A stretch of DNA of 64,000 nucleotides from positions 8,333-72,332 of IMG/VR virus record IMGVR_UViG_3300050343_000266; one strand, 5' to 3'. Below the pieces are notes generated by a model that saw only the letters and a list, made by a program, of their open reading frames with translations, had not been told where the DNA came from and did no database searches. This DNA is from a virus. Lineage: Duplodnaviria; Caudoviricetes. This document shows, one piece after another, positions 1 to 64,000 of the stretch. The first letter of the stretch is position 1, and the number at the start of each line of letters is the position of its first letter. The translations under genes were made by a program, and so were the position numbers.

Positions 1-1
1 C

Positions 2-25483: not shown

Positions 25484-25486
25484 ACA

Positions 25487-45895: not shown

Positions 45896-46381
45896 AGTAA
45901 AAAGTAAGTGAATGCCATATAGGCAATAGAAAATAGAGGACCCATTAGGGTCCGTATATCAGCGGTTTCGAGCAGGATCTAAAGCCATTAGCCGATTGGC
46001 TTGTGCTTGGCAGCGATCAGCTACAAGTTGATAAACCTCTTGTGGGTTATCAGCTTCATGCTCTTGAATTAATTGCACCAGGAAATGCATAAACAATCCT
46101 GTTAGCTCTCTTGTATTTGTCATTCGTCAGGCTGCTGCTAGTTCTCCTGCCATCTCAGCCAACTTGGCTGTAGCACGGCATTGAAGGACGATCCAAGCAA
46201 GCTCTCCTGATAGTTGATTTGTGTCGCAGAAATATTCGATTGTGTCGTCTATCAAACCTTCCAGCTCGGACAGCTGGTCGCGTGATAATTGCATTCATGA
46301 GAGATATAAGTGTTCAGGCCCATCGCCGGGCACAACCTAAATATAGCGCCCATTAGGGCGCAATAGCTATGACATTTATAC

Positions 46382-47211
46382 TTATTTTTTCAGGTTGTAA
46401 TCAATTGATTTTCTTCTGCGAGCAAACTTCCCATCTTTCATTAATCCTTGGTACACATCAGCTTTAGAGGCGGCTCTTTCAGTTCCATAATAATTAACTG
46501 ACGAACTTGGAGAAGGTGACGGAGATGGATTAGGGAAAGGAGATGGAGATGGAGATGGACTAGGAGAAGGCGATGGAGAAGGATTAGGAGAAGGCATTGG
46601 TATATCACTACTGCTAGGCATAGGAATTATTGGCATAGCAATAGTTGGCATACTCTTAGGAGGGGTAATACGCGGCATAGGCATACGCCCAGGCATAGGC
46701 ATACGCCCAGGCATAGGCATCTTCATAGGCATATTCATACCTGGCATCTTCATAGGCATATTCATGCCTGGCATATTCATAGGCATATTCATAGGCATAT
46801 TCATAGGCATATTCATGGCATATTCATAGGCATATTCATAGGCATTCATAGGCATATCCATACCCGGCATCTTCATAGGCATAAACATAGGCATGAACAT
46901 TACCTTAGGCATAGGCATATTCATACCTGGCATCTTCATAGGCATGAACATTACCTTAGGCATAGGCATAGGCATAGGCATAGGCATGCGCATAGGCATA
47001 GGCATGCGCATTACCACAGGCATAGGCTTGGGTTGAGGCTTTGGTGCAGGCTGAGGTGAAGGTGAGGTGAAGGTGAAGGTGAAGGTGAAGGTGAAGGTCT
47101 AGGTGAAGGACGTGGTGAAGGTCTAGGCGATGGCCGTGGTGAAGGTTTAGGTTGAGGTCTAGGCATAGGCATGCTCATACCCATACCCATCATCATGTTT
47201 CTTCTACCCAT
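46382..47211 (-). CDS. extremely Met/Pro-rich repetitive protein (frameshifted in this sequence)
   Basis: ORFs 47011-47211 and 46382-47023 join across a 1-nt loss in a CCTTCA array; tandem CCTATG and ATGAATATGCCT units. Confidence 0.65.
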
Positions 47212-47214
47212 TGC

Positions 47215-47598
47215 CTATTCCTCAAATGTTGTATCTCCCACTCCGTAATCTAAAGTTAATTCGGAGCCTGCGGAAATTGTTTTAATGGCAAAAAATACCA
47301 TACATTCATTGTAATCATCAATGTAATAGTTGATATTGCCTCCATCATCCGTATGGTTATACAGTGCTGCATGACCAAAGCCAATTACAGAGTATTCATC
47401 AGAGAATGCATAACAATGTGAATGTATTGTTGCTTCTTCTGTCTCTTGGTAAGGCAGATAGAGCATAGGAGACTCTTCTATTAGATCTCCTTCTTCAAAG
47501 TCTTCATTAGTGAAAACTCCATATCGATGTATGTTTGATTTTTTAATACATAGACCTGGACTGGTAAATAAATCAGTCTTATTAATATTTGGATGCAT
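47215..47598 (-). CDS. SET-domain lysine methyltransferase
   Basis: SNIHRYGVFT...GDLIEESP, ALYNH, FAIKTISAGSELTLDYG. Confidence 0.88.
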   Translation of the reverse strand: MHPNINKTDLFTSPGLCIKKSNIHRYGVFTNEDFEEGDLIEESPMLYLPYQETEEATIHSHCYAFSDEYSVIGFGHAALYNHTDDGGNINYYIDDYNECMVFFAIKTISAGSELTLDYGVGDTTFEE

Positions 47599-47678
47599 AT
47601 AAAAAAAGTAGCTCCTTATGATTTTAAAGGAACTACTTACATTTAATGACTATAAAAAAGTTAATTAAAGGCTTAATA

Positions 47679-48029
47679 TTAACGACGACGACGAGTAGCC
47701 CGACGAGTAGCGGCAGCAGCTTGACGTGTTGACCTACGAGCTGCACGCCGTTGCGCTGCAGCAGCTTGGCCACCAGCTGTGTTGCGTGTTTTTACACGGC
47801 TAGAGTTTTTGCCGTAAGTAGTACCGCCGCGCATCATTGATTTAACTGCGCCACCAGTTGCAGTTTTGCGTGTTGCTGATTTGACTGCGCCACCTGTTGT
47901 ACGACGACTAGTTCGAACTGAACCATCAGCATTAGTACGCTTGCGTTGAATCGTACCGTCTTTACGCTTGCGTTCTTGAATGGTTGCTCCTCGTTTAGTA
48001 CGTCGCGTACTAGTAGCTCGTTTCATCAT
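47679..48029 (-). CDS. Arg/Thr/Ala-rich protamine/histone-tail-like basic protein
   Basis: 116 aa, nearly no acidic or aromatic residues; TGGAVKS twice; ends RRATRRRR. Confidence 0.7.
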   Translation of the reverse strand: MMKRATSTRRTKRGATIQERKRKDGTIQRKRTNADGSVRTSRRTTGGAVKSATRKTATGGAVKSMMRGGTTYGKNSSRVKTRNTAGGQAAAAQRRAARRSTRQAAAATRRATRRRR

Positions 48030-48080
48030 TGTTCAATACAATTAAGTCTCCTTAAATTGTATCAACTAGATAATACTTAA

Positions 48081-48272
48081 CTACCACATTCCTGGAATCA
48101 TTTGTCCAGTCACTGCATAGCTTCCAAGTGCTGCGATAATACCCAGCATTGCCAAACGGCCATTTAGTTTTTCAGCTTTAGTGTTGTGGTCCATGGTGAT
48201 CTCCATTACTTGCATTTGTGGTTCTTTGGCGTAGATATTTGTTCTTCCGCCGTCTTCAATAATTGTAGTCAT
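48081..48272 (-). CDS. hli: high-light inducible protein
   Basis: AEKLNGRLAMLG...TGQMIPG chlorophyll-binding motif; EDGGRTNIYAKEP leader. Confidence 0.95.
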   Translation of the reverse strand: MTTIIEDGGRTNIYAKEPQMQVMEITMDHNTKAEKLNGRLAMLGIIAALGSYAVTGQMIPGMW

Positions 48273-48404
48273 TTCTGTAATGTTTTGTTAAGCAACTTAA
48301 GTATAGCCTCGAATTCTTGATAACGAGGATTTCTAATTGAGATATTATTCTGCATATAGAGAACTACTGCAGCACGAACATCATTCAGTTGTTCTTGAGT
48401 TAAG

Positions 48405-48815
48405 TCATTCATTGGTATGTCGAGCAATGTATGCAATGAGCTGCTTTAGATGCTTAGGACTATCAGAAACAATCCCTAAGACGATATTACAATCTTTGCA
48501 AAGCAGTTCACGAACGTTGTTGGTTACATGGTCGTGATCCACACACCATTGGTTGTGCTTTCCTCTAGGTTCTGAAGAACCGCAGCAGGCGCATCTGGAG
48601 CTTTGATTAGACACCATCCCATTGAAAGTATCAAGAGTGATGCCGTAAGTACGCCGATAGTGTAAATCTCTTGCTCGCTCTGGGTCTCGGGTAGCCTTAA
48701 CCCTTGCTTTAGTACACTCTTTACATTCATTCTTTCTTTTTAATTTTTTAGCTTTGTCAGCATAGAACTCAGATAAATCTTTTGTTTCTTGACATATACT
48801 ACATATTCTTTCCAT
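48405..48815 (-). CDS. endonuclease VII-family (F-CphI-like) free-standing homing endonuclease
   Basis: CxxC...CxxC N-terminal domain; YGITL...Q..RCACC...VDHDH.T..VRELLCKDCN.VLG; immediately downstream of psbA. Confidence 0.85.
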   Translation of the reverse strand: MERICSICQETKDLSEFYADKAKKLKRKNECKECTKARVKATRDPERARDLHYRRTYGITLDTFNGMVSNQSSRCACCGSSEPRGKHNQWCVDHDHVTNNVRELLCKDCNIVLGIVSDSPKHLKQLIAYIARHTNE

Positions 48816-48816
48816 T

Positions 48817-48841
48817 AAAAAAGGCCCACACTCGTGAGCCT
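48817..48841 (-). terminator. psbA terminator
   Basis: - strand AGGCTCACGAGTGTGGGCCTTTTTT, abutting the Endo VII ATG. Confidence 0.75.
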
Positions 48842-48866
48842 ATCTAAACTAATTGTTAGTTGTGGA

Positions 48867-49949
48867 TTAACCGATAGAAGGTGCAGTTAGAGCTACAGAA
48901 GTAGTCTCAACAGCTGCTAAGTCTAAGGGGAAATTGTGAGCGTTACGTTCATGCATCACTTCCATTCCAAGACCTGCGCGGTTCAGAATGTCAGCCCAGG
49001 TGTTGACAACGTGTCCGCCGTGAACGATTGACTGGTTGAAGTTGAAGCCGTTCAAGTTGAAGGCCATAGTAGAGACACCTAGTGCGGTGAACCAGATACC
49101 TACGACCGGCCAGGCCGCTAAAAAGAAATGCAGTGAGCGACTGTTGTTGAAGCTGGCATATTGGAAGATGAGACGACCAAAGTAACCATGAGCAGCAACG
49201 ATATTATATGTTTCCTCTTCTTGGCCAAACTTGTAACCGTAGTTCTGTGACTCGGTTTCAGTTGTCTCGCGAACGAGTGAAGAAGTAACAAGTGAGCCAT
49301 GCATAGCAGAGAACAAAGAGCCACCGAATACACCGGCAACGCCGAGCATATGAAACGGATGCATCAAGATGTTGTGCTCTGCCTGGAAAACCAGCATGTA
49401 GTTAAACGTGCCAGAGATACCAAGAGGCATAGCGTCAGAGAATGAACCCTGACCGAATGGATAAACGAGGAAGACTGCGGATGCTGCTGCAACAGGTGCA
49501 GAGTACGCAACGCAGATCCATGGGCGCATACCTAACCGGTAGCTAAGTTCCCATTCACGTCCCATGTAAGCGAAGATACCGATAAGGAAGTGGAAGACAA
49601 CAAGTTGGAATGGGCCTCCGTTATAGAGCCACTCGTCCAGTGAAGCCGCTTCCCAGATTGGGTAAAAATGCAGACCGATTGCGTTTGAAGACGGGACAAC
49701 TGCTCCTGAAATAATGTTATTTCCGTAAAGGAGCGATCCAGCAACTGGTTCACGTATGCCATCGATATCTACAGGTGGTGCGCCTACGAAGGCGATAATG
49801 AAACAGATGGTTGCAGCTAGCAACGTAGGAATCATCAAGATGCCAAACCAGCCCACATAGAGGCGGTTGTCAGTTGATGTAACCCACTTGCAAAACTGCT
49901 CCCAATTGGACTGAACGCTAGATGCGCCAGTAAAAATTGTTGAAGCCAT
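48867..49949 (-). CDS. psbA: photosystem II D1 protein
   Basis: 360 aa, uninterrupted; [32 protein letters not shown]. Confidence 0.99.
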
Positions 49950-50012
49950 TAAATTAATGCGGTGTTTTGTTTATTTGGGTTAGTACTCGCGTGTGATTAA
50001 CGCTACCTAACA

Positions 50013-50040
50013 ATCATACCTTGATTGTTATGAAATAAAC
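50013..50040 (-). promoter_or_regulatory. putative psbA sigma-70 promoter
   Basis: - strand TTTATT...GG-TATGAT, about 65 nt upstream of the ATG. Confidence 0.45.
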
Positions 50041-50268
50041 ACAGTATATATACTTAAAGGTCGAGATCTTGGGTTCTAATTTTATAGTCTCGTTGGAAAT
50101 CTCTAGATTGCTTGCGTTCTTTAAGCTGGTGTTCGAGATGTGAGGAAAATCCTTTCGTAGTTGGATGCTTAATAGTCTTTGACATTCTTTTCTCCTATTT
50201 AGTTTTAGTTAGGAGCAGGGAATGCTCCCAACTATGTTTAATATATCAGCGAACACACACTGATGAGA

Positions 50269-50613
50269 TTAAATATAAGTAAAGCTTACATAATCTACAC
50301 CTGGGTGTGTAAGTCCGATTGCTAATGCTGCTCCGTACGATAAATCAAGCTCACGAGCACCAATGTAGGGGCCGCGATCATTGATACGTACATCCACGCA
50401 TCCTTGGTAACAAACGCGTAATTTTGTACCGAAAGGTAGCGTCTTATGTGCGGCGGTATGTCCGTACATATTGTAAGTTTCGCCGTTGGCTGTTGTCCTG
50501 CCGTGGAAATAGCTACCGTACCAGGAAGAAAGCATGGAGCCTCCTGCCTGGACGGATGTGCCGAGGCTGAGCATTGCAACAGCAGCGAGAGTACTAATAG
50601 ATTTAATAAACAT
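50269..50613 (-). CDS. RlpA-like (DPBB) lytic transglycosylase with signal peptide
   Basis: SWYG..FHGRTTANGE.YNM...TAAHKTLPFGT...VRINDRGPY...LDLS. Confidence 0.92.
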   Translation of the reverse strand: MFIKSISTLAAVAMLSLGTSVQAGGSMLSSWYGSYFHGRTTANGETYNMYGHTAAHKTLPFGTKLRVCYQGCVDVRINDRGPYIGARELDLSYGAALAIGLTHPGVDYVSFTYI

Positions 50614-50690
50614 TTAGTTGATAACATTATTTTCTAAACCTTAAGCTAACTAATAGGGAGCACAATTAAGTACTCCCAATCGTATAACTA

Positions 50691-51647
50691 TCACGCAGTA
50701 ACTAAGTCACGTGCGATTGTGAAGGCTTTCTTGCTAATCTGAGCACCAATACCGAATGTGCCACGTGCAAACTGAGCACGAGTTTTAGCAGCGGTCTGAT
50801 TACGAGTGCTTGTTTCTATTTGGGTAATAGCATTAAAGCCATTCCAAAGAGAGAACGAGGCATACTCTGCACCATAGCCAGCACGGAATGCTTGCTCTAG
50901 CTTCTGACGTTTACGTAGGACATCACCTTCGTCTACGTTATATACCTCATCAACGAACTCGTTGAACTGAGACATATTCATAGCTGTACGAGAGAACTCA
51001 CGCATCAGGTCACATTCATGAGCAAAGTCTTGACGCGATACATCAATGCTGCTGATAAGAGTATCGAAGTTTGCGTTGGCAGTGCCCTTGTGAGTGATGC
51101 TTGAGTGAGCACCTGTGTCACGCAAGGCAGCAGTCAGTGTGTTCTGACAGACAACACGGATGTTGGTGAACTTTGCACCACAACCAGTCTTGCCGTCATG
51201 ACCTAAGTAGCCGACGATGCGTCGTTTGACTGTGTCGCCAGGGACGATGTCCGTCTCCGCACCACGGAGTGTGGCGGTAAAGCATACTTTGGCTCCGTCT
51301 GATAGAACGATGACGCAGTCCATGTCTGCCTCTTCGCGGATAAACTCCGCCATGCGAAGCAGCGATTCGTTTTGAACGATTTCGTACTGCTTGGTAACGA
51401 CACCGAGCAAGGCTTGGGTGTCAGTACGGACAACTCCGAAGACACCTGCTGGCAGCCAAAGGGGCTGATCGTTGTCAGGTTGAGTGTTGTTGTTCCAGTA
51501 TTGAAGCTCTCGCTTCTCGACAGTAAATAGTGCGTCTGCTGTTTCAAACGCCTCTCGCGCTGGAAGCGTGCCAGGGGTGACAACCCCCTGCCCGTGCCAT
51601 GCACGTTCGCCATTGCCGAGCCAGCCAGATGTGAAATTTGCGGACAT
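50691..51647 (-). CDS. DUF932/DUF945 family protein
   Basis: AWHG.G, VRTD...LGVV..QYEIVQN, HDG, TNIRVVCQNTL, SLWNGFNAIT. Confidence 0.88.
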   Translation of the reverse strand: MSANFTSGWLGNGERAWHGQGVVTPGTLPAREAFETADALFTVEKRELQYWNNNTQPDNDQPLWLPAGVFGVVRTDTQALLGVVTKQYEIVQNESLLRMAEFIREEADMDCVIVLSDGAKVCFTATLRGAETDIVPGDTVKRRIVGYLGHDGKTGCGAKFTNIRVVCQNTLTAALRDTGAHSSITHKGTANANFDTLISSIDVSRQDFAHECDLMREFSRTAMNMSQFNEFVDEVYNVDEGDVLRKRQKLEQAFRAGYGAEYASFSLWNGFNAITQIETSTRNQTAAKTRAQFARGTFGIGAQISKKAFTIARDLVTA

Positions 51648-51815
51648 TTTGATGTAGCCATGTATTGGACACAAGTTGTAAAAGGCCCCGTTAGGGGTCC
51701 TCCAAAGTATGGCAATTAGCTTTAAAAAACAAAGTCACTAAATATACATTTGCTGAGTTATTTATATCTACATGTTTATCAGCCTACGATTTATTAAGTT
51801 AACAATCAAAAAAAA

Positions 51816-52133
51816 TTAAGCTTGAAGATCAATGTACTGAGATATCTTCTCAGACATTTCCCAACCACCTTTATATTTCCCTGTTTTGCAAGCAACTAGG
51901 TGCTCACAGGCAAAACATGGATGTCCATAACATTCTTTAGTAAGCCGTTTGTCAGCTTGGATACGTCTGAATGTAAATAATGAATTGATATATCCACAGT
52001 TTTCTGAATGTTTGTGCATAAAGCAGCGAGTGGCTTCATACATCACTTCAGACATTGTCATGCCCCAAGCATTGGCGTAGTCCTTTAATACTGCGTGACA
52101 CGGGTCAGGCATTTGAACTTGAATTTTTTTCAT
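51816..52133 (-). CDS. ribbon-helix-helix-like + Cys4 protein (paralog B)
   Basis: MKKIQVQMPD..HAVLKDYA..WGMTMSEVMYEA; CYGHPCFACEHLVAC. Confidence 0.6.
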   Translation of the reverse strand: MKKIQVQMPDPCHAVLKDYANAWGMTMSEVMYEATRCFMHKHSENCGYINSLFTFRRIQADKRLTKECYGHPCFACEHLVACKTGKYKGGWEMSEKISQYIDLQA

Positions 52134-52477
52134 GAGATACAACTGTCACATGAACATCTTTTGACGTGTTGCTTCAACAAATGCCTATATTCTTCAGCAA
52201 TTTCCCATTCGTTTTTGTACAGACCAGTTCTACACGCAAGCTCATGTTTACAGCACCGGCAAAGATAGCCGTAGCAATGCTTGGCTGAACGTTTGTCAGG
52301 AAGCATTCCCTGTTTTCTGAGTATTCCGTCTGCCATTTCACATACCTGAGAAGATCCATGTATGTGCTGTTTCGCAGCCTCATACATGAGCTCTCCCATG
52401 GTCATGCCCCAATAAGCGCAGTACTCCTTGAGGACAGCAGCAAATTGTTCGTCAACCTTGACGTCTATCCGCTGCAT
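52130..52477 (-). CDS. ribbon-helix-helix-like + Cys4 protein (paralog A)
   Basis: MQRIDVKVDE..AAVLKEYC..WGMTMGELMYEA; CYGYLCRCCKHELAC; ATGA-coupled to paralog B. Confidence 0.6.
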   Translation of the reverse strand: MQRIDVKVDEQFAAVLKEYCAYWGMTMGELMYEAAKQHIHGSSQVCEMADGILRKQGMLPDKRSAKHCYGYLCRCCKHELACRTGLYKNEWEIAEEYRHLLKQHVKRCSCDSCIS

Positions 52478-52837
52478 AAATGCGAACATGAAAATGAATC
52501 CTCTTGAACATAGGGGCAAAGAGACGGATCGGACACGATTTGAGCAAATTGCTTCTCGGTAAAATTTTATTAAGCGTACATTTTTTAATCATTTGTGTAG
52601 CAAGCGTACAACCGTGCTTTTTTGCTTGTATTCAGCTGCAAGGGAAGGGAAGTGCTCAGACAGTACCCCAATAGAATTATGGAAAAACTACGTTTGCTAC
52701 GCTTCTTCCTTATATATCTCTTTTTTAATGCACCTCTCCTCTATTTATTTAATGGTTATATAGAGAATTAGCGTAGTTAGCGTAGCTTTTTATATAGCAG
52801 ATACTAAAAAACCCAGCACTTGACTGGGCTTTGGATG

Positions 52838-53527
52838 CTACGCAATGGTCGGTTTAAATTGAAAGATGTCTTTGACGCCGCCTGTATATTGTCGGGCAAA
52901 CTCATTAACGTCGGTAGTAGGTTGATAAGGATTTGCTTCTTCAGAATCGTATGCCATATCCTGGAAATTACTTTTGTAAGGAGACAAATTTCCGCCAGCC
53001 CCGAAGGTGTTTTCCCAATCAGAAACAATCCCTGCATTTTTTAATAATTCAGGTGAGGGCTCATATGGTTCCTCAGTTGTGTCAGGTGTAATAGAAGCAT
53101 TAGTTTGTTCGTCATCGTTAGTAGATAAAGCATCAATCTTATCTCTTAGTAAACGTTGAGCATCGTTAACTAAATTGTTCGTGACGCCAGTAATATCTTT
53201 GTTGGAAGAGTATTTACCTTCGTTCCCTGCTTTCTTGTGAAGCTTGTGAGCGCCACGTTGATAGGCAACATAATCAGATAGTTTTCCGTCGCCTTCGATA
53301 TCGTCCATATGTTGAGCACTGGTGCGATAGTCAAAGTCATTACGGACTCGATCTTCGACAGCTGCTCTTAAGGCATCATCGTCAAAGTCTTCGTAACGAC
53401 TGCCACCATGTGCGTCGTTAGTAAATTGATCTTGATCAATTCCATATTCGTCTGCCAAGTCACGAATGTAATTACGCTGGCCCATAAGACCTAATTTGCC
53501 GAACTTTTTTGGCTTGTCTCTTCCCAT
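52838..53527 (-). CDS. hypothetical acidic protein
   Basis: 229-aa ORF followed by a terminator-like hairpin at ~52806-52830. Confidence 0.65.
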   Translation of the reverse strand: MGRDKPKKFGKLGLMGQRNYIRDLADEYGIDQDQFTNDAHGGSRYEDFDDDALRAAVEDRVRNDFDYRTSAQHMDDIEGDGKLSDYVAYQRGAHKLHKKAGNEGKYSSNKDITGVTNNLVNDAQRLLRDKIDALSTNDDEQTNASITPDTTEEPYEPSPELLKNAGIVSDWENTFGAGGNLSPYKSNFQDMAYDSEEANPYQPTTDVNEFARQYTGGVKDIFQFKPTIA

Positions 53528-53551
53528 GACACAATTAAATAGCTTTTAAAT

Positions 53552-53749
53552 CTATTTTACTTGGTCTGAAGTTGACTTTTTAGGTTTGTAGTAAAGAGGC
53601 TCGTCAAGATAATCGCAGACAAGTTCTGCTAAGTCCCAATAGTGAATAAACCAGTCGGCTATTAGTCCTGAGTGGGGTAGTGCGTGATATCGATATTCGA
53701 CATCATCTATTTCGTCAAGAATTTTGTCGCGTAGTTCCTGCTTGTTCAT
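53552..53749 (-). CDS. small hypothetical protein
   Basis: 65-aa ORF. Confidence 0.55.
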   Translation of the reverse strand: MNKQELRDKILDEIDDVEYRYHALPHSGLIADWFIHYWDLAELVCDYLDEPLYYKPKKSTSDQVK

Positions 53750-53880
53750 TCATAGAGTCTAGATCTAAATAGCATTTAATGCTGGCTATTAGCCCTAGTT
53801 ACTTATACAAATTGCATACAATTTATAAAGGAGAAGTTACTTATGTAAAACGCAAATAACACATAGGTATATAAATATGA

Positions 53881-54981
53881 GTGTTACCCGAAAGATTACG
53901 TAAAGCCAAAATCAGGCGAGATGTATCACGTTTAAATACTGATATAAGAGATTTAGACTTTGATGAAATCGCAGATGGATTTGATCTTAAGGACGACCCA
54001 CAGATTTATAAACTTCTGAAAGAGTTATCGCAAAGAGAAGCTTTAAGAGCTGAGGTAGGCGATTATCATGATATTATTCCTGATCCAGGTAGGCCCGGTA
54101 AATGGACTTTCTCTGAATACAAAGAAAGCGATCCAGTTTTAACTCATAATCAGCAAAATGCTTCACTTAATCATTACTTGAACAGTGAGCTATCGGGAGG
54201 TTATATGCCTTCACTGCCTATGGATACTAATCCAGCATTAATGGCTGAATTAGAAGAAGCAGTAAAAGCTTTGATGTCACGAGAAACACTAGAGAAATTT
54301 GGAGGTAAGCATGGGATGCATGGAGGAACTCGCAGAGTATCTGATCAACCAGGTGTAATGGCACAATATATTCATGATTTAGGATTAGGATACGATCGTG
54401 TGTATAGAGATCCAATAACACATCAAAAACCAAATCAAGGTCATATCGCCGCACATGCTAGTAGTGATGTTTTGTCTCATTTAAAAGAGAACATAAGACT
54501 ACAAGGAGGTCATTTAAATCAAATTCTTCGAAATGAAGAATCAGACATGGTTACAGCAATATTAGATCAAATGCAAGGTAGACGGCAGGTGGTTGATCAA
54601 GTTGATTTAGACAAAAACATTGTAGAAATCAAAGCTGCTCAGAATTTACGAAAGAAACAAAAACAACAAGAAACTCGACAAAAAAATAAAGAAGTTAAAA
54701 TGAAATTTGATGCTGGAGCTAGTAATTTGTTAGATAAAAGATTTGCAGATGCAAGAGTTTTAGACGAATTTCAAAAGCTAAAACAGAGTGCACTACAAGA
54801 AATAGATGCCAAGCGTGATGCTCAAGCTGCAGGTGCAGTGGTTGGAGAGAAGCCAACAGTAATCAATGCTGGTGAAGGATCACGTGTCTATGTTGAAGGC
54901 GGTAACGGCAATGGTAACGGACATAAAGTCGATAAAATTAAAGCAGCGATGAAGAATGGATATGGGAACGGTAAACATTAA
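53881..54981 (+). CDS. hypothetical protein with a possible HNH-like motif
   Basis: RDPIT....NQGHIAAH.......ENIRLQ...LNQ. Confidence 0.55.
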   Translation: MLPERLRKAKIRRDVSRLNTDIRDLDFDEIADGFDLKDDPQIYKLLKELSQREALRAEVGDYHDIIPDPGRPGKWTFSEYKESDPVLTHNQQNASLNHYLNSELSGGYMPSLPMDTNPALMAELEEAVKALMSRETLEKFGGKHGMHGGTRRVSDQPGVMAQYIHDLGLGYDRVYRDPITHQKPNQGHIAAHASSDVLSHLKENIRLQGGHLNQILRNEESDMVTAILDQMQGRRQVVDQVDLDKNIVEIKAAQNLRKKQKQQETRQKNKEVKMKFDAGASNLLDKRFADARVLDEFQKLKQSALQEIDAKRDAQAAGAVVGEKPTVINAGEGSRVYVEGGNGNGNGHKVDKIKAAMKNGYGNGKH

Positions 54982-55439: not shown

Positions 55440-55499
55440 GTGTTCCGTATAGGGGACACAAAGAACTAAACCGCCCATTAGGGCGGAAGGTTGTTTAAA

Positions 55500-55571: not shown

Positions 55572-55610
55572 TAGTAGGGGTATGGGGTTTAAGACCCCAG
55601 TACCTAGTAA

Positions 55611-56093
55611 TCACTCTTGGAAGCAATAAGTAACCATCCAATCCATTACATGGCTGGCTGAACGTAGTTCCATCCAGAATGCTTCTAGTTCGAGGCGTTT
55701 GTGATCACCTCGGTAGCCCTGGAGTGTTGCGTAGTAATGAGGAGCCATTTCTTGCAACTCACGTAAGACACGGGGTACTTTTGAATCTGCAATGACAGGA
55801 CCTGCTTGGCAGGCTTGCATGACATGAGTGGCTTCATGGGAAACCACTTCCCACACAGCGTCTGCATCTTGCATATCGACTGCGTTCTTACAGATCGCCA
55901 TTACGTCAATGCTGTTCTGTGGGTCATAGCTGTAATAACCCATCACTCCTTCCTGCGTGCAGTTTTGGATTGAGACGGTAGTACCAGTCTGTTCTACAAG
56001 TTCTACAAGTGAATGAACGTCTTGCCAGGATGTTGCACTTGCAGGCATTGCAAGAGCTAGTCCAGCAAGGACAGAGAATATTTGTTTGATCAT
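55611..56093 (-). CDS. secreted HExxH zincin-like protein
   Basis: Signal peptide; VSHEATHVMQAC...ELEA. Confidence 0.7.
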   Translation of the reverse strand: MIKQIFSVLAGLALAMPASATSWQDVHSLVELVEQTGTTVSIQNCTQEGVMGYYSYDPQNSIDVMAICKNAVDMQDADAVWEVVSHEATHVMQACQAGPVIADSKVPRVLRELQEMAPHYYATLQGYRGDHKRLELEAFWMELRSASHVMDWMVTYCFQE

Positions 56094-56227
56094 TTTATTA
56101 ATTCGCTTTAATGGAGTGTGGGAATAAGGATTCCAAAAATCATGCCTAGGCAGTACATAGCCAGGCCGTAAATAACAGTCGTTTCCTTCATATAAGACTA
56201 TACTCTACGTTATTAATTTAGCGTGAT

Positions 56228-56752
56228 TTATAGTCCATAGGGAAATACTTGTTCAGGATGTGCATCCCAATATTCATCATTTTTTCTGAGATGGACGGCG
56301 TCGATGCCTTGCATGTGAGCGCCTTGAATGTTGTAAGGGGAGTCATCGAATAGTGTCCCAACTTGGCGGTAGTCTTCTTGTAATTTTTGAAGCATTGCTT
56401 GCTTAGCAACACCGGATGGTTCCCCACCAGTGCTCAGCATGATTTGATCAAACGGTACGTTGTGCCGTTGAAGCCATTCGATAGTCTCTTGAAGACGTTC
56501 AGCAGGACGTGCTGTAGCGATAGCAATACGGTCGCCCTTGCTTGCAAGTAATTGCGCAAGTTCTACGACTGCTTCGTCAGCAGGGAAGTCCCGTGCAGCG
56601 TCAAAGAACTGATCTTTAGTCAGACCAGTGTTGTCAAAGCCTTCAGGCTTACGAGTAAGGGTGTCATCTACATCAAATGCATGAACGATTGCTTGCTTAT
56701 CAGCAGGGGTTAGTTCAGCGCCCTTGAAAAGATCGGCGGCAAATCGTCTCAT
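56228..56752 (-). CDS. HAD-family phosphatase (polynucleotide kinase 3'-phosphatase-like)
   Basis: AFDVDDTL, ATARP, K, FDDSPYN. Confidence 0.85.
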   Translation of the reverse strand: MRRFAADLFKGAELTPADKQAIVHAFDVDDTLTRKPEGFDNTGLTKDQFFDAARDFPADEAVVELAQLLASKGDRIAIATARPAERLQETIEWLQRHNVPFDQIMLSTGGEPSGVAKQAMLQKLQEDYRQVGTLFDDSPYNIQGAHMQGIDAVHLRKNDEYWDAHPEQVFPYGL

Positions 56753-56823
56753 ATCTCTATTCGAGTAGATATTATTTATTGTAGTGATATTGATAAAATT
56801 AATAGATATAAGTCATATGTAAT

Positions 56824-57987
56824 ATGTCAAGAATAAGTCTTGCTAAACAGTTAGGAGGAGATCGTTTAGAAGCAGCTGCAGATGCACTACTTAACGACCT
56901 GACGGGCTCTACCCGTTATGGCAAGACAAGGGAGATGGATTATGTATTCCCTGGAGATCGTTTGACTGCAGATAATGTTGAAGAGAGTATTACTCGGCTT
57001 GGTGCACGTAACCCTGCACAACTTACGTATGGGCCTGATGGCAGCATCGTGGGAATTGAGGGGGGAGACGTTATACGCAACAAGAAAGGAGGCATCAACA
57101 TTGATCAAGTGCCGTCCCCTTACGGGAGGGACTACGTCAAGTACAGCCCTTCAGTGGTCGATAGCACTACAAGTGAACTAGTAGAAGCTCAGTTGTATCC
57201 AGAGCGCTTTACAGGCGCTACAGGACAGCTAGGAGCTGCAAGAGATATGGGCTTGGCCCACAGGTACAACGACTACGAGGGATATAGGGCAATTAATGAC
57301 CGTATGGAGGTCACACCGGAAGCATTGGCGCGGTTTGGTGCATTAGTGACCAAAGGAAAGGCAGATAAGCCGATCGCGGCAGCAATGTCAGGTGGAGGTG
57401 CCATCCTCGGAAGCCGTGGAGACACCGTGTTGATTCCAGGGACAGACAAGGTATTCAGTTCATTACCCAGTGATGAGAAGGCTGCTTATTTAGGTGAGAG
57501 GGGAGATGTCTTTCTTAATCAGTGGCTACAGCAAAAGGGTGGTTCGATGGGAACAGCACAGTCAGTGATATTCCCTCCTGGGCGACCTAGCCATATGGAC
57601 CACATCCAATCGCTGTCAAGCAGCATTGATGCAAAAGGTCCGGCAGGGTGGGGTTATAGCGATGATCCAACTAACTTCAGCTATCTAGACGCTGACTACA
57701 ACGTCAATACAAAGCTGAACTACGACTTACAGACGGTGCATCAGCTCGGTCGGTTGGCCGACACCATGCGTCAAGACGGATATGGAGCCCGGCTACCTAA
57801 GAACCTCACTGATCAGGAGTTAGGCGATCCAGACCGGAAGCGTCTGTCTCAGAATGAGGCCATTGGTGAGTTAGTCATGAAGACCATTCCACCTACGGCA
57901 GACACAAAGGAATTGGAGTACGCCTTAGGAATGCTCCGTCAAGCAGAGCGTGAGCAGATGCAGTGGAGTGGTGGGTTAGCTAGCTGA
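56824..57987 (+). CDS. hypothetical protein with an HNH-like motif
   Basis: HMDHIQSLS...DDPTNFSYL...YNV.TK; TAAAAT box at 56794. Confidence 0.6.
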   Translation: MSRISLAKQLGGDRLEAAADALLNDLTGSTRYGKTREMDYVFPGDRLTADNVEESITRLGARNPAQLTYGPDGSIVGIEGGDVIRNKKGGINIDQVPSPYGRDYVKYSPSVVDSTTSELVEAQLYPERFTGATGQLGAARDMGLAHRYNDYEGYRAINDRMEVTPEALARFGALVTKGKADKPIAAAMSGGGAILGSRGDTVLIPGTDKVFSSLPSDEKAAYLGERGDVFLNQWLQQKGGSMGTAQSVIFPPGRPSHMDHIQSLSSSIDAKGPAGWGYSDDPTNFSYLDADYNVNTKLNYDLQTVHQLGRLADTMRQDGYGARLPKNLTDQELGDPDRKRLSQNEAIGELVMKTIPPTADTKELEYALGMLRQAEREQMQWSGGLAS

Positions 57988-58627
57988 ACTCATCCATCCC
58001 TTGCATAAATTGGAGGGTAGGGCCGTATGCGGCTTGAATATCGCGTGTCAGTGCTTTGAGCTTTAAAGCGTTATGCACAGCAGAAGCCGTAGACACTGCA
58101 GATATATCGCGTGCTTTTACAGCATCATTAACAGTCTGTTGGACAGCTGCTAGATCAGATAAACGTTCTCTATTGAAATTCATGATTGTTAAACAGATGG
58201 AAAGTCAGCTTCAGTGAACGGAACAGTTTCACCGTATGCAGCTGCCATGTCACGTTGCTTTTGACGAGACATGATCCTTTGAGAATCTTCGTTACGTGCT
58301 TGCATAAGCTGCTCATTTCTATTTATTGCCTCTGCCATTGTTTGAAAAATACGATTTTCGCCAGCAAAGCGTTCGATATTCATAGCAAAAACACACAGTA
58401 TTTATATTCTAAAGTTTTCCCTCAACTACAGAATTATGTGGAATTGATGTATATCCGTCAAATTCACCTTTGAGGACAGGGATGTGGATATTTTCTGTGA
58501 CCCATCGGCAGTCTTCTTCTGTTGGTCCAGTGACCATGCGGTCGCCAGACTTAAGCACAGAAGTATAAAGGCCAAACCTTGACTTTTGGATTGAAAACTC
58601 ATATGTTTCCTTAGTTTTTCTAGGCAT
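57980..58627 (-). CDS. three small hypothetical genes (57980-58183, 58189-58383, 58409-58627)
   Basis: Co-oriented ORFs; the last carries SRFGLYTS...MVTG.TEE.CR..T. Confidence 0.55.
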
Positions 58628-58701
58628 GTGTATATTTAAGCTCTGTCCAGTTTAGTTAGAAACGTAAAAAAGTGGCCCTCATTAGAGGACCACATTGATC
58701 A

Positions 58702-59127
58702 TTAAGCAACAGGTTCGAGAGCAGGAGCTTTGTCGATAACGACGTCACCTGCGTCTTCTTTCTTGTAAGCACCGTAGCCACCACTCAACACAACAGCGTT
58801 GCTGAGTTTGAGCTCAGGGCGACGACGATACTCTGTTTTACCTGTCTTTTTGTCGAAGTAGGTTTCAGAGAAACCAGACAGATGACCGGTGACAGTAATC
58901 GTACGTCCTGTCCAATCGCGATTGGATTTGATGAAGGTGTCAAGCAAACCGTTGTTGCTGTTGATCTTGACGGCAATAGCTTGTCCATCACTGACAAGAT
59001 CAGAAAGAACGGTCATGGAGAGAAACTCTCCATACTGACCGACAACGAGCTCTGCGAAGGACACTCGACCAGTGATGGTGAGAGCGTTGAAGTCCGCAAA
59101 GGTCTTCTTGTCGTTGGAAGTTGTCAT
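58702..59127 (-). CDS. SSB-like OB-fold protein
   Basis: NALTITGRV...GRTITVTGHL...YFDKKTG....RPEL. Confidence 0.6.
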   Translation of the reverse strand: MTTSNDKKTFADFNALTITGRVSFAELVVGQYGEFLSMTVLSDLVSDGQAIAVKINSNNGLLDTFIKSNRDWTGRTITVTGHLSGFSETYFDKKTGKTEYRRRPELKLSNAVVLSGGYGAYKKEDAGDVVIDKAPALEPVA

Positions 59128-59187
59128 GAGAAAAAACTCATATAAAGAACACGAGAAAAAAGAGGACCCATTAGGGTCCGCAGGTTG

Positions 59188-62100
59188 TTACTCACAACAG
59201 GGTGCTGGTATGACAGTGAAATCGTCATCGCAGACACTGATTGTCGTGAGGATGTTCATGATTGCCTGGAACTTACCGGCATCTTTTGCCCATCCAATTG
59301 CAAGAGCTACGTCATGGTCTTCAAAAAGACGTTCAGAAGCTTTTGTGTGCCATTCCATAAGACTATGGATGATCTCACAGGCAGCAAGCTTGTGAACAAT
59401 CGGATGATTGATTTCGTCAGTCATGTCAGAGAGCTTGTCACGGACAACAGCTGAGACTTCGTCTGCAGTACGTCCGTCATAGGAAGCTGCTTCTTTATCT
59501 ACAGGCTCCACTTCTTGTTGAGCATTGACCATCAGATCTGCAAGATCTTCGAAGGAAATGCTGTCAGGAGTTGCGCTCATATGTTATGCGTAAAGAACAT
59601 TAGAAACTTAAGGACCCATTAGGGTCCAAAGTTTTACCTGTGAGCTACTTGCTTAGCGATACGGATATAACGCTTACGCTTGTTAGCCAGGTAGTTTGCC
59701 AGAATGATGTTCATAGTCTCCATATGTAGTACATAAGTGAAAAAAGCCCCCATAAGGGGGCATAGGGTCATACTTCTGCTAAAAATGCACCAAAGTCGTG
59801 TAGTTTCTCGCCACAGATGGCAAGTACTAATCCGACATTGTTTACACCTTTGCGGCAGCGTTGTCCGACATCATTCCAATCAATTGACTTGATAGCAGAT
59901 ACTGCATCATCGATTGGGGGGAAGGCAGGTGTCTTACTTGCATAAGCACGCTCTTCCGCCATGTCTAGAGTCTCATTTAAAGAGACTGGTGCTGTTGAGA
60001 TGATAGTCATTAACGACAATCAAAGAACAGAAGTAAAAAGAGACCCCATTAGGGGCCTCGTGTTCTTAGTGATGAGGTCGGCGGCATAGCCACTCATCTG
60101 ATTCCATCATCGCTTCACGGATGATGTATGCACGACGTGCCGCTTCTTCGGAAAGCTCTTGATATTCAAGAGTACCGGGGCAGTCATGCGGATCCAGAGG
60201 TAATTCAGTCATACCTATATTGTTATGGACAATAGAGTCAAAACCCCCCATTAGGGGGGTCTTATGTGTTACTCAGACGAGCGCAGCACAGAAGTGTGCA
60301 TGCTCAGCGTCAGAAATGAAATCACCGATTGCTTCGTTGACAAGAGGTACAGAACCATCGTTTAGATAGGTGTACTCCTCTTCTTTCGTGAGGTAGCTGA
60401 AGGCGTCTTCGTTCTGAGCAACTACGAGACTTATGCCAGGTACCAGTGTGTCACTGATGATCTGGAAGTCGAAAGTAGTCGCCATAAAGACAGAATGATG
60501 AAGAACATCAATTCTTAGAGGACCCATTAGGGTCCTAGGCTGTCCATTCTTCGGAAGCTTCAGGCAACAAATCGTGCTCTATTTGGAGCTCGTTGATTGT
60601 TTCCTTAAGCTGATCGGCAGCACGTTCATATGCGAGTAGTCTCTTTTGTAGGACAGCGATTTCATCCGCTGCTTGTTTCTGTCTGAGCTCTGCATATTTG
60701 GCATCTGAGATGACATAGACATCTCCGCCAAAGGGGATTTGAGCCATATCGTTTATCAAATGGAAGGGTGAGAGGTTATAGAAGGACATCCTGCTTCTTT
60801 ATATATACCGGACTTTACTAAGATAGACTGTCCAGGTCTCTACGTTGGTGAGTAGGACCGCCCTGATTCTTGGTAATTTCCCGAACCATGTCGTCGTAGA
60901 AGTCGTCGCCAAACTGTCGTCGTACCTTCTTCTCTAGGTCTACTCCACCAAGTACAGATACATCGTTATAGATGATCTGATAAAGGTAGGATAGTGCCTT
61001 CTGGTGAGACATACTTTCCACTACAGCGGAAGCATACTCTTCCTTAGCTCTCATGAGCTCTCGTCCTGTTAATGCAGTCATCACTGATATCGTCCGTTAG
61101 ATGTACGGTTGCGCTTGAAGCTATAAGTTGCAACTGTAGCTGTAGCAAACAGTCCCAACATACCAATGATAGCCAGGATGATTGTAGATGAGTCGTATGT
61201 AATCATTAGATGATGATATAAAGAACATCGTTAAATAGACCACCCATTAGGGTGGATATTCCTATGGTGCAACCACTGCTATGTCTTCCTTAGGGAAGAT
61301 GAATGGCAGTAGAACCATAGGGAATGCTAGCACTTCCATGTGGAGACCCACGGTAATTGCTGCATAGATTGGTAGTAGAACTTTCATAGTCTGTGTATAG
61401 ATAACACAGAAGAAAAGAGAGCTTGTTAATGCTCTAGTTCATGGCAGGAGGAGAGAATCTCCACTGCTTCTTTATTAGTGATTGTTCCTTGTTGTGTGGC
61501 ATATGCCAACTCCGTCGCCACCTCAGTACACATAAGTGAACTATTAGGTGGTACGGGAGTGAACAACAGAGGGATAAGTAGTATCGTCTTAATCATTTCT
61601 TAATAAGCCTTATACAATACAATGAGGGTACTGATAGTTACATAGTAATGCGTAGAACACCCTCAGTATCGAATGGCAGCATCATCAGCCAGTAATCGAC
61701 GATATGTAATCGATATGGAAAAGATTGAGCCGGGACATACTGTCAGGAAACTGTTGGAACAAGATCCGATCGAGATTGATGACAGAGTATGCAGAAGGAG
61801 TACGTAACAGGGTAATGGTAGATAGTCCGCAGAGGTAATGTTGATACTATGAGAAACACTGTGGGAGCAGTGATAGGTACACCATTGGGACATGGACTAC
61901 CAGAAGTTGTAGGTGACCCACGGTTGATTGATCAGATTGCAAGGTATGCAGTACCTGCTGCTTCTGCAGGAATCCCACTAGCAGCAGCAAGGTATCTGGA
62001 ATCCCACTAGCAGCAGCAAGTTCACACAATGGCAGATGCAACTGTAGGTGACATTTGAGTTCGGTACGATTACATCAGTCAGTATAGGTCAGTCGTTTCA

Positions 62101-63600
62101 AGAACATTTACTTAAACAGATGACTAAAAAACCCCCCGTAAGGGGGGAAGTGAGCTCAAGCCGCGGAGGCGGAGGGAGCGGAAGTGTCAGAAGTCTTTAG
62201 CGTCTGCTTTGTCATTCATGGTGTTCAATGACCTTCTTAGCTGAGTAGAAGGAACCACCGACAGCAATACTGTCGATGCCACCATCAGCGTGTTGTACGC
62301 CTACATCAAAGACGTCGTACTGTGAATCACCCGTCTCGACACGGTCGAATAGACGGAGAGACAGGTCAGTACCAGGAATGCGAATCATAGATTTGTATGT
62401 ATAGAACAATGCCGTATAGGCAAGAAGAAATAGAGAGCGCGTTAGCGCTCAACAGTTGTGTGTACTGGAGCTATGCAGCCAGAGCTGTCACCCAGTACTT
62501 GTACCAAGGCCAGTCACGTTGATAACGTTGACGTAGAGCTGTTGCTCTTTCATATGACATTGGAGGGTAGGTCATAGTTGAGACTTGACCATTACGCTCA
62601 ACGAGTAGTTGATACATGAGTGAGATATATAGAGAACACGAAGAAATAACCCCCGCGTTAGCAGGGGAATAAAATCTACGACCAAGCAGCAGGACCACGT
62701 GTGATTGCCCAATAAAGGGGAGGCATTGGGCCATAGAGAGAAGGCCCGACATAGACGTCTCCATTTAATGGTTACGAATTGGAGGTCAGTAAGTTCATAC
62801 CAGTAGGACATAAGTGTGATAAGATAAAGAACACAGTGAAATAAACCCCGCGTTAGCGGGGGATATAGTTCAACAAGGAACGTAGCCATCAGCCTTAAGT
62901 AAGGCGTAGACAGCACGAGCTGTATGGCGATCAGATTCGCACTACATCACATTCTTCCCACTGACCCTGAGGTCCGAGAGGTAGTTCCCCACGTTGATGG
63001 GGTGTGATAAGCACTTCGTCCATTTCGCGGTTCAGGTTACCCTCTAAGTCAACGCCGGAGCCAGGTAAATACCGTGAAGGTAATTATGTCGTCCATTAAC
63101 ATGTCGCGAAGGTTGAAGACTTGAACGGTCAGTAGACATGAGTGCATACTCATAAAGAACATAGTGAAATAAACCCCGCGTTCGGGGGAACTATGTCTAG
63201 AAAGGAATTTCATCGAACTCAACTTTCTCCATAGGCTGATCAAGGAAGAGTGGATACTCTTCATCAGGAGCATTACAGTCATAGTTGTGGACAACGCCAA
63301 CGTAGTTGCCGTCCTCATCTATGTACGTGTAACCCGAGTTACCGAACTGTTGAAGGAAGATCATGATGTAATTATGAGAAAAACACAGTGAAATAGACCA
63401 CCCATTTGGGTGGCCATTGTTGTTAGAAGATAAGGTTGTTAATTTGCTGTGATGAGGGGACATAGTCCAGACGAACGTCGTCCCAGTCCTCGAAGGACTT
63501 TGCAAATGACTTAGCTTCTTGATACGAGTGGAAGCATTCACGTACAGCTGCGAAGCTGTCGTTACCGCTGATGTCGTAGAAGGTGACTGTGTACATCTGA
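59188..63600 (-). CDS. array of small early genes (e.g. 59188-59580, 59768-60019, 60066-60212, 60273-60485, 60535-60747, 60818-61084, 62212-62388 and further short ORFs)
   Basis: Short co-oriented ORFs, almost all preceded by the hairpin + TGTTCT module. Confidence 0.6.
61648..62060 (+). pseudogene. + strand gene broken by several frameshifts, with a 23-bp direct repeat
   Basis: MRRTPQYRMAA... continues in shifting frames; GGAATCCCACTAGCAGCAGCAAG at 61969 and 61998; TACAAT boxes upstream. Confidence 0.4.
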
Positions 63601-64000
63601 ATGATGTAAAGAACACTCACAGACACAGAGCGCGTTAGCGCTCAATAACCCTCACGAGTTCCCTTAGTGGTAGGTGTGGTAGGTTCACACAACACAGAGG
63701 CCGAGAGACATCTAATGTTACGCACAAGTTCTAACGTGAGTTATGAACGACAGTTAGACAACTGAAGTAACTGGTGCTTACAAATGTGAACGCAAGACGA
63801 GAACGAACACAACACAATAGTTAACATCTTATGTTGAACTAAAGATATTGTGTGAGTTCTACTTGCGTGAACAGAAGAATAAACGTGAGCTCGATTACGA
63901 GCGAACAACAGTTGTAACGAGCGAGCGAAGCGAGCGGGTGAAACCTTGTGTTCTACTAGTTTATTTTTTTTGTTCCACCGGCCGATCGGGAACAGAGGGT

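Follow-up and report, generated by a model that had tools for sequence, protein, structure and literature searches.

Hairpin-and-box cassettes in front of the small genes of a marine cyanophage: possible terminators, expression signals and recombination linkers

Introduction

Why should a virus genome carry a short GC-rich hairpin and a conserved box in front of nearly every small gene at one of its ends? The question is raised by the 72,332-bp single-contig virus record IMGVR_UViG_3300050343_000266, which is rated by CheckV as 91% complete and of which we analysed bases 8333–72332 (this stretch of 64,000 nucleotides, nt, is referred to here as the window, and positions are window positions unless stated otherwise). 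The original prediction for this DNA had described the hairpins as part of a repeated early-expression cassette that may also serve in gene exchange. We find that the cassettes are linkers of about 55 nt which lie between nearly all of the small genes at one end of the genome and which, as had been proposed, read on the minus (−) strand in the order hairpin, U-rich spacer, TGTyCTTTAyAT box and ATG. Taking the evidence together we tentatively regard each cassette, with a little less than even confidence, as a terminator joined to an expression box for the downstream gene, similar to the PeSL elements of T4-type phages and doubling as a recombination linker.

Number, covariation and layout of the cassettes

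All 14 of the perfect hairpins originally listed, each with a 6-bp stem and a 4-nt loop, are present where they had been placed. The window contains 16 GC-rich hairpins of this form, 14 of them in 45–64 kb, and dinucleotide shuffles (n = 200) gave 2.47 ± 1.52 with a maximum of nine. We built a covariance model from 19 copies (42 columns, ungapped except for one copy missing 2 nt) and scanned the genome with it (72,400 nt, both strands, filters off, E < 0.01), obtaining 22 matches which are all on the − strand, the coding strand here. These are the 19 training rows and three new sites at 51660–51701, 61395–61436 and 25473–25514, the last of which is a plain terminator without a box. The seven imperfect copies that had been listed also match the model, five of them having been training rows and the two from outside the training set being 51660–51701 (E 1.7e-5) and 61395–61436 (E 0.003).

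The compensatory changes that had been claimed for the stems are found in the alignment, where 99.1% of 114 stem cells are paired (the sole unpaired cell belongs to the copy with the 2-nt deletion), double changes occur in five of the six pairs, and none of 500 shuffles reaches this level. It should be noted that the aligned copies had been chosen as hairpins, so that these figures confirm the description and are no independent test of it. The further claim that the loop and closing pair are held is correct within this genome, where the closing pair is C-G in 19/19 copies, and fails across the relatives described below. A search of 45,000–64,000 against Rfam (E ≤ 5) found that tRNA alone reached the threshold, with no other curated RNA family represented, and a pattern scan of IMG/VR (loop, spacer and TGTTCT) returned 20 loci, none with a hairpin plus box, which are chance matches.

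Fourteen of the approximately 18 small genes in 58.6–63.7 kb have a cassette in front of them, and the spacings within the cassettes are tight. We examined 52 cassettes of three lineages (the window and the two distant relatives L110 and L111) for the distance between the preceding stop codon and the hairpin start, and this was 5–8 nt in 28 of the 42 cases with an assignable open reading frame (ORF). The spacer is 12 nt long, with TGT exactly 12 nt past the 6-bp core in 14/19 window copies; a pattern of loop, 18 nt and TGT occurs 11 times, always on the − strand, with shuffles giving 1.28 ± 1.18. When pooled over 43 cassettes the spacer starts T-T-T-W-T-T-T and is followed by the box consensus given above. 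The start of the box lies 19 nt from the ATG that opens the ORF in 15/38 cassettes, 20–22 nt in 12/38, and 17–24 nt in 30/38. Three shorter distances reflect an extra ATG inside the box, and five longer ones (26–34 nt) belong to variants in which a second small stem-loop is inserted between the spacer and the box. Such an insert keeps the single-strand path short in RNA and would shift the spacing in duplex DNA, which argues that the spacing is measured at the level of RNA.

The resulting leaders differ from those of the phage's other genes. In the 31 nt that precede a cassette ATG pyrimidines make up 65% and G 12%, compared with 46% pyrimidine before the other genes, and tetramers resembling the Shine-Dalgarno (SD) sequence are found in 0/19 cassette leaders compared with 15/84 other phage genes. 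We note that no cassette precedes the gene at 60789 or its L110 ortholog (60790–60830; L110 8080–8123), both of which instead carry a TATATAAA/TATAAATA-like element 7–8 nt before the ATG, a different signal in an equally short leader.

Strand and terminator character of the hairpin

The imperfect stem pairs indicate on which strand the structure matters. Every one of them is rescued by a G·U or U·G pair on the − strand (five cells), leaving an A·C mismatch on the + strand, and the reverse pattern was not seen (0 cases). The relatives show the same bias, and a two-strand scan allowing G-T pairs found no cassette-like site specific to the + strand. As the wobble pairs occur only on the − strand, the structure is selected in the mRNA sense, and the hairpin very probably acts as RNA in that sense.

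A scan for hairpins with T-tails was passed by 17/21 cassette hairpins in 45–64 kb, and found 42 sites in this region compared with 13.2 ± 4.1 in shuffles. Predicted fold energies range from −6.0 to −17.5 kcal/mol, with all but three of the 22 window copies at or below −10.7, and the stem is followed by T at position +1 in 40/43 and at position +3 in 38/43 cassettes of the three lineages. The features of an intrinsic terminator, a GC hairpin and U-tract on the transcribed strand after a gene, are therefore present with four exceptions (63628, 63398, 60520 and 51660, which fail the T-tail scan); that some copies have no U-tract had been noted originally. Judged by these features the hairpin is probably a terminator or attenuator.

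Conservation in relatives

Six metagenome contigs (L021–L026) encode the 141-amino acid (aa) protein of the gene at 58705–59127 with 74–99% identity, and all of them keep cassettes. Two distant relatives were recovered from IMG/VR by a profile search, L110 with 54% protein identity, which sits on a 79-kb contig rated 100% complete, and L111 with 38%. The model finds 11 cassettes in L110 and 13 in L111 (E < 0.01), all 78 of the 78 matches at E ≤ 1 over the five relatives' loci are on the gene strand, and in the whole 79-kb contig 10/10 matches fall on one strand at contig positions 16–24 kb. The expectation that the box would be conserved was borne out, with the 12-nt spacing, the box and the box-to-ATG distance being the same in L110 and L111.

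Divergence from the window over ten collinear blocks, pooled over related rows (L021–L026) which are not independent samples, amounts to 3/514 in stems, 6/172 in loops, 34/516 in the spacer, 11/470 in the box and 1252/21398 elsewhere. The box thus diverges approximately 2.5 times more slowly than the surrounding sequence, and one box change in the close relatives goes toward the consensus (TGTTTT to TGTTCT).

Over longer distances the hairpin and box behave differently. L111 has a "house" hairpin, GCCGGC-UAAC-GCCGGC, in 7 of the 19 cassettes listed, and L110 has another with a 3-nt loop, GCCCCC-UCY-GGGGGC, in 6 of the 19 listed, so that the hairpin is homogenised within each genome and lineage-specific. 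In contrast, box variant TGTTCTTTGATTG precedes both the window gene at 60010 and L110 8418, variant TGTTCTTCA precedes both the window gene at 60485 and L110 9718, and a mini-hairpin UGCC-loop-GGCA precedes the window gene at 62388, L110 6452 and L111 2800 (once with a UUCG loop). As the box variants follow the orthologous downstream gene across lineages, the box belongs to that gene, and by this comparison we are confident, short of certainty, that it is a cis-signal of the downstream gene.

Gain, loss and reordering of gene modules

The suggestion that the cassettes act in recombination is supported by the finding that gene content and order between the cassettes vary among relatives, with breakpoints inside cassettes. 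Besides L021–L026, L110 and L111, four metagenome runs with matching DNA were compared with the window as assembled contigs. Such contigs cannot show RNA ends, strand or level, and stretches without cover carry no meaning; contig ends near hairpins or the tRNA were not used as evidence.

L022 is without window 63136–62669 (two modules), with a 56-nt cassette crossover zone that aligns to both flanks, and without 60024–59759 (one gene), where the junction lies in the spacer and fuses one cassette's hairpin with the following cassette's box. The same skip of 296 nt occurs in a 2370-nt contig of run X15 (joint 59735→60032), the library of which is labelled RNA, a label that is no sign that the stretch is transcribed. 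L021 and L022 also have an extra module of approximately 270 nt between two CCCCCC-UUAC-GGGGGG hairpins, of which the window retains one hairpin and a nine-codon remnant with no box. Across the small-gene region L022 differs structurally from the window at three places, all with at least one end in a cassette, and in two of them the crossover runs cleanly from cassette to cassette.

Three further differences involve cassettes, which makes six in all. Right behind the box of the cassette at 62846 the window and L021 have very different sequence over the first ~50 nt of the following gene before identity returns, the X15 contig departs from the window exactly at 61255, the 5′ edge of a hairpin, with 137 unlike letters following, and contigs of runs X1 and X12 skip 62470–63193 with six other letters between, both ends lying no more than 20 nt upstream of hairpins. 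Gene order has changed as well, as the window gene at 60527 stands before those at 60010 and 59580 whereas its ortholog in L110 comes after theirs, and the order of the genes at 61387 and 61206 is inverted in L111, while the next 18 shared genes are collinear between lineages. We consider it likely, and with some assurance, that the cassettes act as recombination linkers.

Proposed function and alternative explanations

In the interpretation that we tentatively favour, the GC hairpin and U-rich tail would close the upstream gene as an intrinsic terminator or attenuator, and the hairpin would also cap the 3′ end of the upstream gene's mRNA. The box would open the downstream gene, acting in cis within an SD-less, pyrimidine-rich leader by loading or regulating ribosomes on transcripts that either run past the hairpin or are cleaved behind it. 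In cyanobacteria, initiation on pyrimidine-rich leaders that depends on S1 and not on an SD is established. That the box acts at the level of RNA and translation we put at not quite an even chance, with action as a promoter given a clearly lower one. Because a linker of the same kind flanks every small gene, it would also provide short patches of homology, and recombination there would have deleted, inserted and reordered modules. The genes concerned would be early ones, judging by their position and size.

A number of observations weigh against this interpretation. Some 15 serial terminators in one operon would starve the distal genes unless they were weak, bypassed or each followed by a new promoter, and this favours explanations based on promoters or antitermination. 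Four of the 21 hairpins, including the first one in the leader, are without a U-tract. A general ribosome-loading tract should need no specific sequence, yet the TGT hardly varies (42/43 cassettes have T as its third base). None of the phage's other genes carries the box, and in a Synechococcus genome which we used as host-like (psbA 94% identical) TGTTCTTTA occurs in three copies compared with 11 for the reversed control; being phage-specific and rare in a host-like genome, the box points to a specific reader. Four joints lie off the cassettes, three in one X1 contig (short sides 24–38 nt) and one at 52261. What the sequences and assembled contigs show directly is the layout, the strand, the conservation and the gain, loss and reordering of modules at the cassettes, whereas termination, read-through, processing, the reader of the box and early timing are inferred, and the pooling of related rows noted above applies to the divergence counts.

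The reader of the box is the weakest link. Pairing of the box with the host-like 16S rRNA gave chance-level matches only, none at the 3′ tail, a search for ribosomal protein bS21 found none, and a search for S1 domains gave only sub-threshold matches which proved to be initiation factor IF-1. A LexA-type operator was considered and rejected by eye, as there is a half-site only, with no partner at the right distance. Two genes of the phage itself deserve mention as possible contributors:

Window 1–241, + strand: 3′ end of a sigma-70-family gene (the whole gene is G000:C1:7635-8573, 312 aa).
42863–43087, − strand: translation initiation factor IF-1 (TIGR00008, 70.5 bits compared with a cutoff of 61.15).

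The IF-1 gene is directly upstream of a MazG-like gene and lies under an overlapping + strand ORF.

The serial terminators would cease to be a problem if each cassette combined a terminator with its own promoter, the box being an unconventional −10 element at which host RNA polymerase, perhaps aided by a phage factor, starts leaderless or very short-leader mRNAs, and each gene being an autonomous promoter–gene–terminator module. We regard this as possible but unlikely. It fits self-sufficient modules that move between genomes, and has a precedent in the PeSLs, which join early promoters with terminator stem-loops (PMC2839356, the accessible part of the paper). The box is phage-specific, the first cassette ends a long non-coding leader right before the first gene in all three lineages, and at a distance of 19 nt, with transcription starting at the A of the ATG (+1), the TA of the box falls at −12/−11, the usual spacing of a −10 element from its start, and the lack of an SD would be accounted for as well. 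However, there is no −35 element, a hand count of the 19-nt class found TA at −12/−11 in 8/15 and T at −7 in 2/15, which led us to reject a leaderless −10 geometry, and distances of 20–24 nt and the two-hairpin variants (26–34 nt) break that geometry. A sigma-70 scan of the region found no site at any cassette, and 19 sites in all compared with 38 ± 6.7 in shuffles. The phage uses TAGAAT-type elements elsewhere: TAGAATA lies 11–34 nt upstream of start codons at 6/6 window occurrences (5100, 10476, 14864, 23303 and 26449 on the + strand, 58411 on the − strand) and is probably the −10 element of promoters that lie outside the cassettes, although it is not enriched overall (6 compared with 10.9 expected). 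The phage sigma factor (TIGR02997, 396 bits compared with a cutoff of 384.5; regions 1.2, 2, 3 and 4), which has a 313-aa counterpart in the 79-kb relative, falls in the ordinary cyanobacterial RpoD/SigA family. A phage RNA polymerase was not found with PF00940, which matched 0/3 records, including this one and the 100%-complete relative, a weak result since 14 control genomes were also blank. That blank search bears equally on the original proposal, modelled on phage N4, of template-strand DNA hairpins read by a virion RNA polymerase, for which a search had been suggested. In favour of it, the genes presumed to be early are preceded by short GC hairpins whose geometry is constant, and some of these have no U-tract. 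Against it, the wobble pairs assign the structure to the non-template strand, loop length is 4 nt (3 nt in one relative), there are ~20 copies and not a few at one end, no T7/N4-like polymerase domain was matched, and the largest ORF is a 958-aa tail fibre; we think the N4 proposal most improbable. The associated idea of stable C-GNNA-G DNA mini-hairpins suits 5/19 aligned copies, in which the + strand loop starts with G, and not the rest.

Antitermination offers another way past serial hairpins, in which these gate the array and the box recruits a factor, with IF-1 as the candidate, which melts or bypasses them and aids initiation; alternatively the site would work in the manner of nut or boxA–boxB. 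The box is reminiscent of the boxA of E. coli, and resembles the T-rich heptamers preferred by cold-shock OB-fold proteins, a lead and not a test; the host-like rrn boxes proved different, as the Synechococcus boxA is GAACCTTGACAA in the rrn spacer and GAACCTGGACAA in the rrn leader, unlike TGTyCTTTA. The 12-nt hairpin–box spacing is held even where the U-tract is lost, the first cassette is in the leader, where a nut-type site would sit, and all three lineages encode IF-1, a gene which is rare in phages (34 of 50,697 records). For E. coli IF1, an OB-fold protein, RNA-chaperone and transcription-antitermination activity are described both in vivo and in vitro (review PMC3017892, the accessible part), and by analogy the phage IF-1 is a possible trans-acting partner of the cassettes. 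Nonetheless, the loops vary by lineage (UAAU/UAAC; UAAC; 3-nt UCY), which gives no indication of a conserved loop-binding protein, the IF-1 gene is ~16 kb downstream and its product 63% identical to the host-like Synechococcus IF-1, so it may be an ordinary translation helper, and one site is usually enough, which makes ~20 unusual. We consider antitermination rather improbable, and are just as doubtful of a phage-private expression code in which the UGUyCUUU box is read by a phage factor (with IF-1 as candidate) that melts or bypasses the hairpin and loads ribosomes. If true, this would mean that a single small protein acts as the on/off switch for an entire array of plug-in modules, and that modules could be swapped between phages without breaking control. 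A further account is of ordinary intrinsic terminators, with a functionless box and spacings that were inherited, spread and homogenised by duplication and gene conversion. Most of the hairpins are terminator-like and the uniform house hairpin of each genome shows concerted evolution, but the box and both spacings persist at 38–54% protein identity while the hairpin and spacer sequence have turned over, the box diverges more slowly than its surroundings, and plain terminators with the same loop and no box exist (58651–58692 and 25473–25514). We regard this account as very unlikely, and agree with the original prediction that the cassette is a lineage-specific composite in front of small genes and more than a set of terminators.

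Comparison with known systems

The PeSLs of the T4-type phages RB49 and phi1 (PMC2839356; the comparison rests on the accessible part of that paper) are the nearest parallel to the terminator, expression box and linker that we favour. In both systems short composite cassettes are packed densely between small ORFan genes, both carry a GC-rich terminator-like stem-loop plus the next gene's expression signal, and in both close relatives differ by whole-ORF insertion, deletion or replacement with crossovers inside cassettes. Here the cassettes likewise lie between small ORFans in a plastic region and bound the insertions and deletions, and the scan described above found no sigma-70 early promoter inside them. 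PeSLs have a clear sigma-70 −35/−10 promoter and a Shine-Dalgarno sequence, whereas neither is recognisable in our cassettes. The PeSL stem-loop varies in position (five subclasses), whereas the stop–hairpin, hairpin–box and box–ATG spacings here are rigid and the conserved box is a different one. Finally, PeSL phages are T4-like, and this phage is not and has a cyanobacterium as host.

Other systems share fewer features with the cassettes. Intrinsic terminators have the GC hairpin and U-rich tail right after stop codons on the coding strand only, but here 4/21 hairpins are without the tail, one is in a geneless leader, and all are tied at a fixed distance to a box and start. The lambda nut and rrn boxB–boxA sites share a small hairpin and short pyrimidine-rich box at fixed spacing with a first copy in the leader, but here the box is unlike the host-like Synechococcus boxA, the loop is not conserved between lineages, and there are ~20 copies compared with one or two. 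N4 early promoters resemble the cassettes in being short hairpins of uniform size that precede genes presumed to be early, but have a 3-nt loop and a virion RNA polymerase, in contrast to 4-nt loops, a coding-strand RNA structure, many copies and no polymerase found. Integron attC arrays share the small-ORF array behind one leader, hairpin-forming separators and gain, loss and reordering, but here the hairpins are 16 nt and the junctions are in the spacer or box, not in the hairpin. An integron was rejected as the phage integrase matches generic tyrosine recombinase models only (best XerC, 31 bits compared with a cutoff of 335) and no integron-integrase family.

A literature search on cyanophage motifs found no description of the element (subscription papers and supplements were outside its reach), and the bioRxiv preprint 10.1101/325100 contains no occurrence of hairpin, stem-loop, terminator or promoter. 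Shuffling of the PeSL type is known from T4-type coliphages, and in the literature searched it was described for no other group. If our interpretation is correct, an unrelated and uncultured lineage of marine cyanophages has reached the same solution of self-contained modules with a standard linker, in a format which differs from PeSL in being much more rigid and in relying on a signal other than a standard promoter or a Shine-Dalgarno sequence. The covariance model would then be a sequence handle for finding hyperplastic gene arrays in ocean viromes, the cassettes would be a testable case of gene expression in SD-poor picocyanobacteria during infection, and the phage's own IF-1 and sigma factor would have a possible role.

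The leader and individual cassettes

The array starts behind a non-coding leader, and as had been observed no gene lies upstream of the outermost cassette (cassette 1 below). In relatives the leader is ~680 nt (spans: L021 1–875, L022 800–1523, L110 4530–5218, L111 1010–1735) and is bounded by a divergent gene ~320 nt past the window end; the deposited record stops inside it. A leader with conserved blocks and the first cassette at its end is also found in both distant relatives (54%/38% protein identity), and may contain an origin, packaging end or early promoters. The features are as follows, from the genome end inwards:

63646–64000, − strand: non-coding leader before the first cassette; blocks conserved in L021, L022, L110 and L111; TGTTC four times on the − strand.
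63604–63645, − strand: cassette 1; GAGCGC-UAAC-GCGCUC; no U-tract; box TGTTCTTTACAT; ATG at 19 nt; 38.6 bits.
63374–63415, − strand: cassette; CCACCC-AAAU-GGGUGG; box TGTTTTTCTCAT; 42.1 bits.
63150–63191, − strand: cassette; box TGTTCTTTATGA; hairpin (63174–63187) 2 nt shorter than in relatives.
62822–62863, − strand: cassette; CCCCGC-UAAC-GCGGGG; box TGTTCTTTATCT; 46.4 bits; mosaic breakpoint right behind the box.
62627–62668, − strand: cassette; U·G wobble in the stem; box TGTTCTCTATAT.
62411–62452, − strand: two-hairpin cassette; main hairpin, spacer, mini-hairpin UGCC-UAUAC-GGCA and second box TGTTCTATACAT 20 nt before the ATG.
62108–62149, − strand: decayed cassette; hairpin retained, box lost, nine-codon remnant of a gene still complete in L021 and L022.
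61395–61436, − strand: weak cassette; 5-bp stem, 8-nt loop; box TGTTATCTATAC; ATG at 19 nt; 21.1 bits, E 0.003.
61216–61257, − strand: cassette; CCACCC-UAAU-GGGUGG; box TGTTCTTTATAT; 48.8 bits.
60496–60537, − strand: cassette without a U-tract; spacer UCUAAGAAUUGA; box TGTTCTTCATCA; box variant TGTTCTTCA common to the orthologous L110 module.
60220–60261, − strand: cassette; CCCCCC-UAAU-GGGGGG; box TGTCCATAACAA.
60018–60059, − strand: cassette, left partner of the one-module deletion; G·U wobble; box TGTTCTTTGATT.
59722–59763, − strand: cassette, right partner of the same deletion; GCCCCC-UUAU-GGGGGC; box TGTACTACATAT.
59588–59629, − strand: cassette; GGACCC-UAAU-GGGUCC; box TGTTCTTTACGC.
59140–59181, − strand: cassette before the 141-aa gene 58705–59127; box TGTTCTTTATAT; 48.8 bits; kept in L021–L026.
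58651–58692, − strand: plain terminator with the same loop type and no box; 9-bp hairpin, U6 tail.
55447–55488, − strand: cassette directly behind tRNA-Asp; box TGTCCCCTATAC.
55157–55198, − strand: cassette; 8-bp stem including a G·U pair; box TGTTCTATACAT.
51660–51701, − strand: cassette before the DUF932 gene; bulged stem; box TGTCCAATACAT; L110 and L111 orthologs also have cassettes.
46322–46363, − strand: two-hairpin cassette; second hairpin GCCC-GGCGAU-GGGC; same variant in L111.
45914–45955, − strand: two-hairpin cassette before a 215-aa gene; UGCC-UAUA-GGCA.

In the L022 ortholog of 63374–63415 the extended stem carries a double change from G-C to A-U. The 2 nt absent from the hairpin at 63174–63187 are present in L021 and in the contigs of runs X1 and X12, and their loss is genuine or else reflects misassembly of the record. 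The two-hairpin variant at 62411–62452 also precedes the orthologous gene in L110 and L111. The tRNA-Asp (55500–55571, − strand) has a cassette hairpin 13 nt downstream and no cassette in front, and is probably co-transcribed with the upstream gene.

Phage type and genomic context

Gene content marks the record as that of a marine cyanophage. Marker genes are psbA (48870–49949, − strand), hli, ribonucleotide reductase, thyX and a split T7-like DNA polymerase, with a primase-helicase, integrase, major head protein and tail fibres in addition; the DNA polymerase is only ~44% identical to those of T7-like cyanopodoviruses. None of the 19 ORFs called in 58.7–63.9 kb has a PHROG match, a megablast of 58,000–64,000 against public phage records found no close relatives, tblastn with the 141-aa protein (58705–59127) against the same records found no relatives, and an exact-peptide search in IMG/VR found no match. 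The stretch 58,600–63,700 or near-identical DNA is present in runs of 12 coded marine, seawater or viral metagenome studies, which suggests that this phage, or relatives almost identical to it, is represented in the marine metagenomes of several studies.

A SET-domain protein (47218–47598, − strand) and the DUF932 protein (50694–51674, − strand) are among the auxiliary genes near psbA and hli, and the DUF932 gene is preceded by a cassette in all three lineages. Two + strand ORFs, 53881–54978 (366 aa) and 56824–57984 (387 aa), lie within the − strand block and have no PHROG or Pfam match; both lie in DNA with positive GC and AT skew, unlike their neighbours, and may be genes inserted in the opposite orientation.

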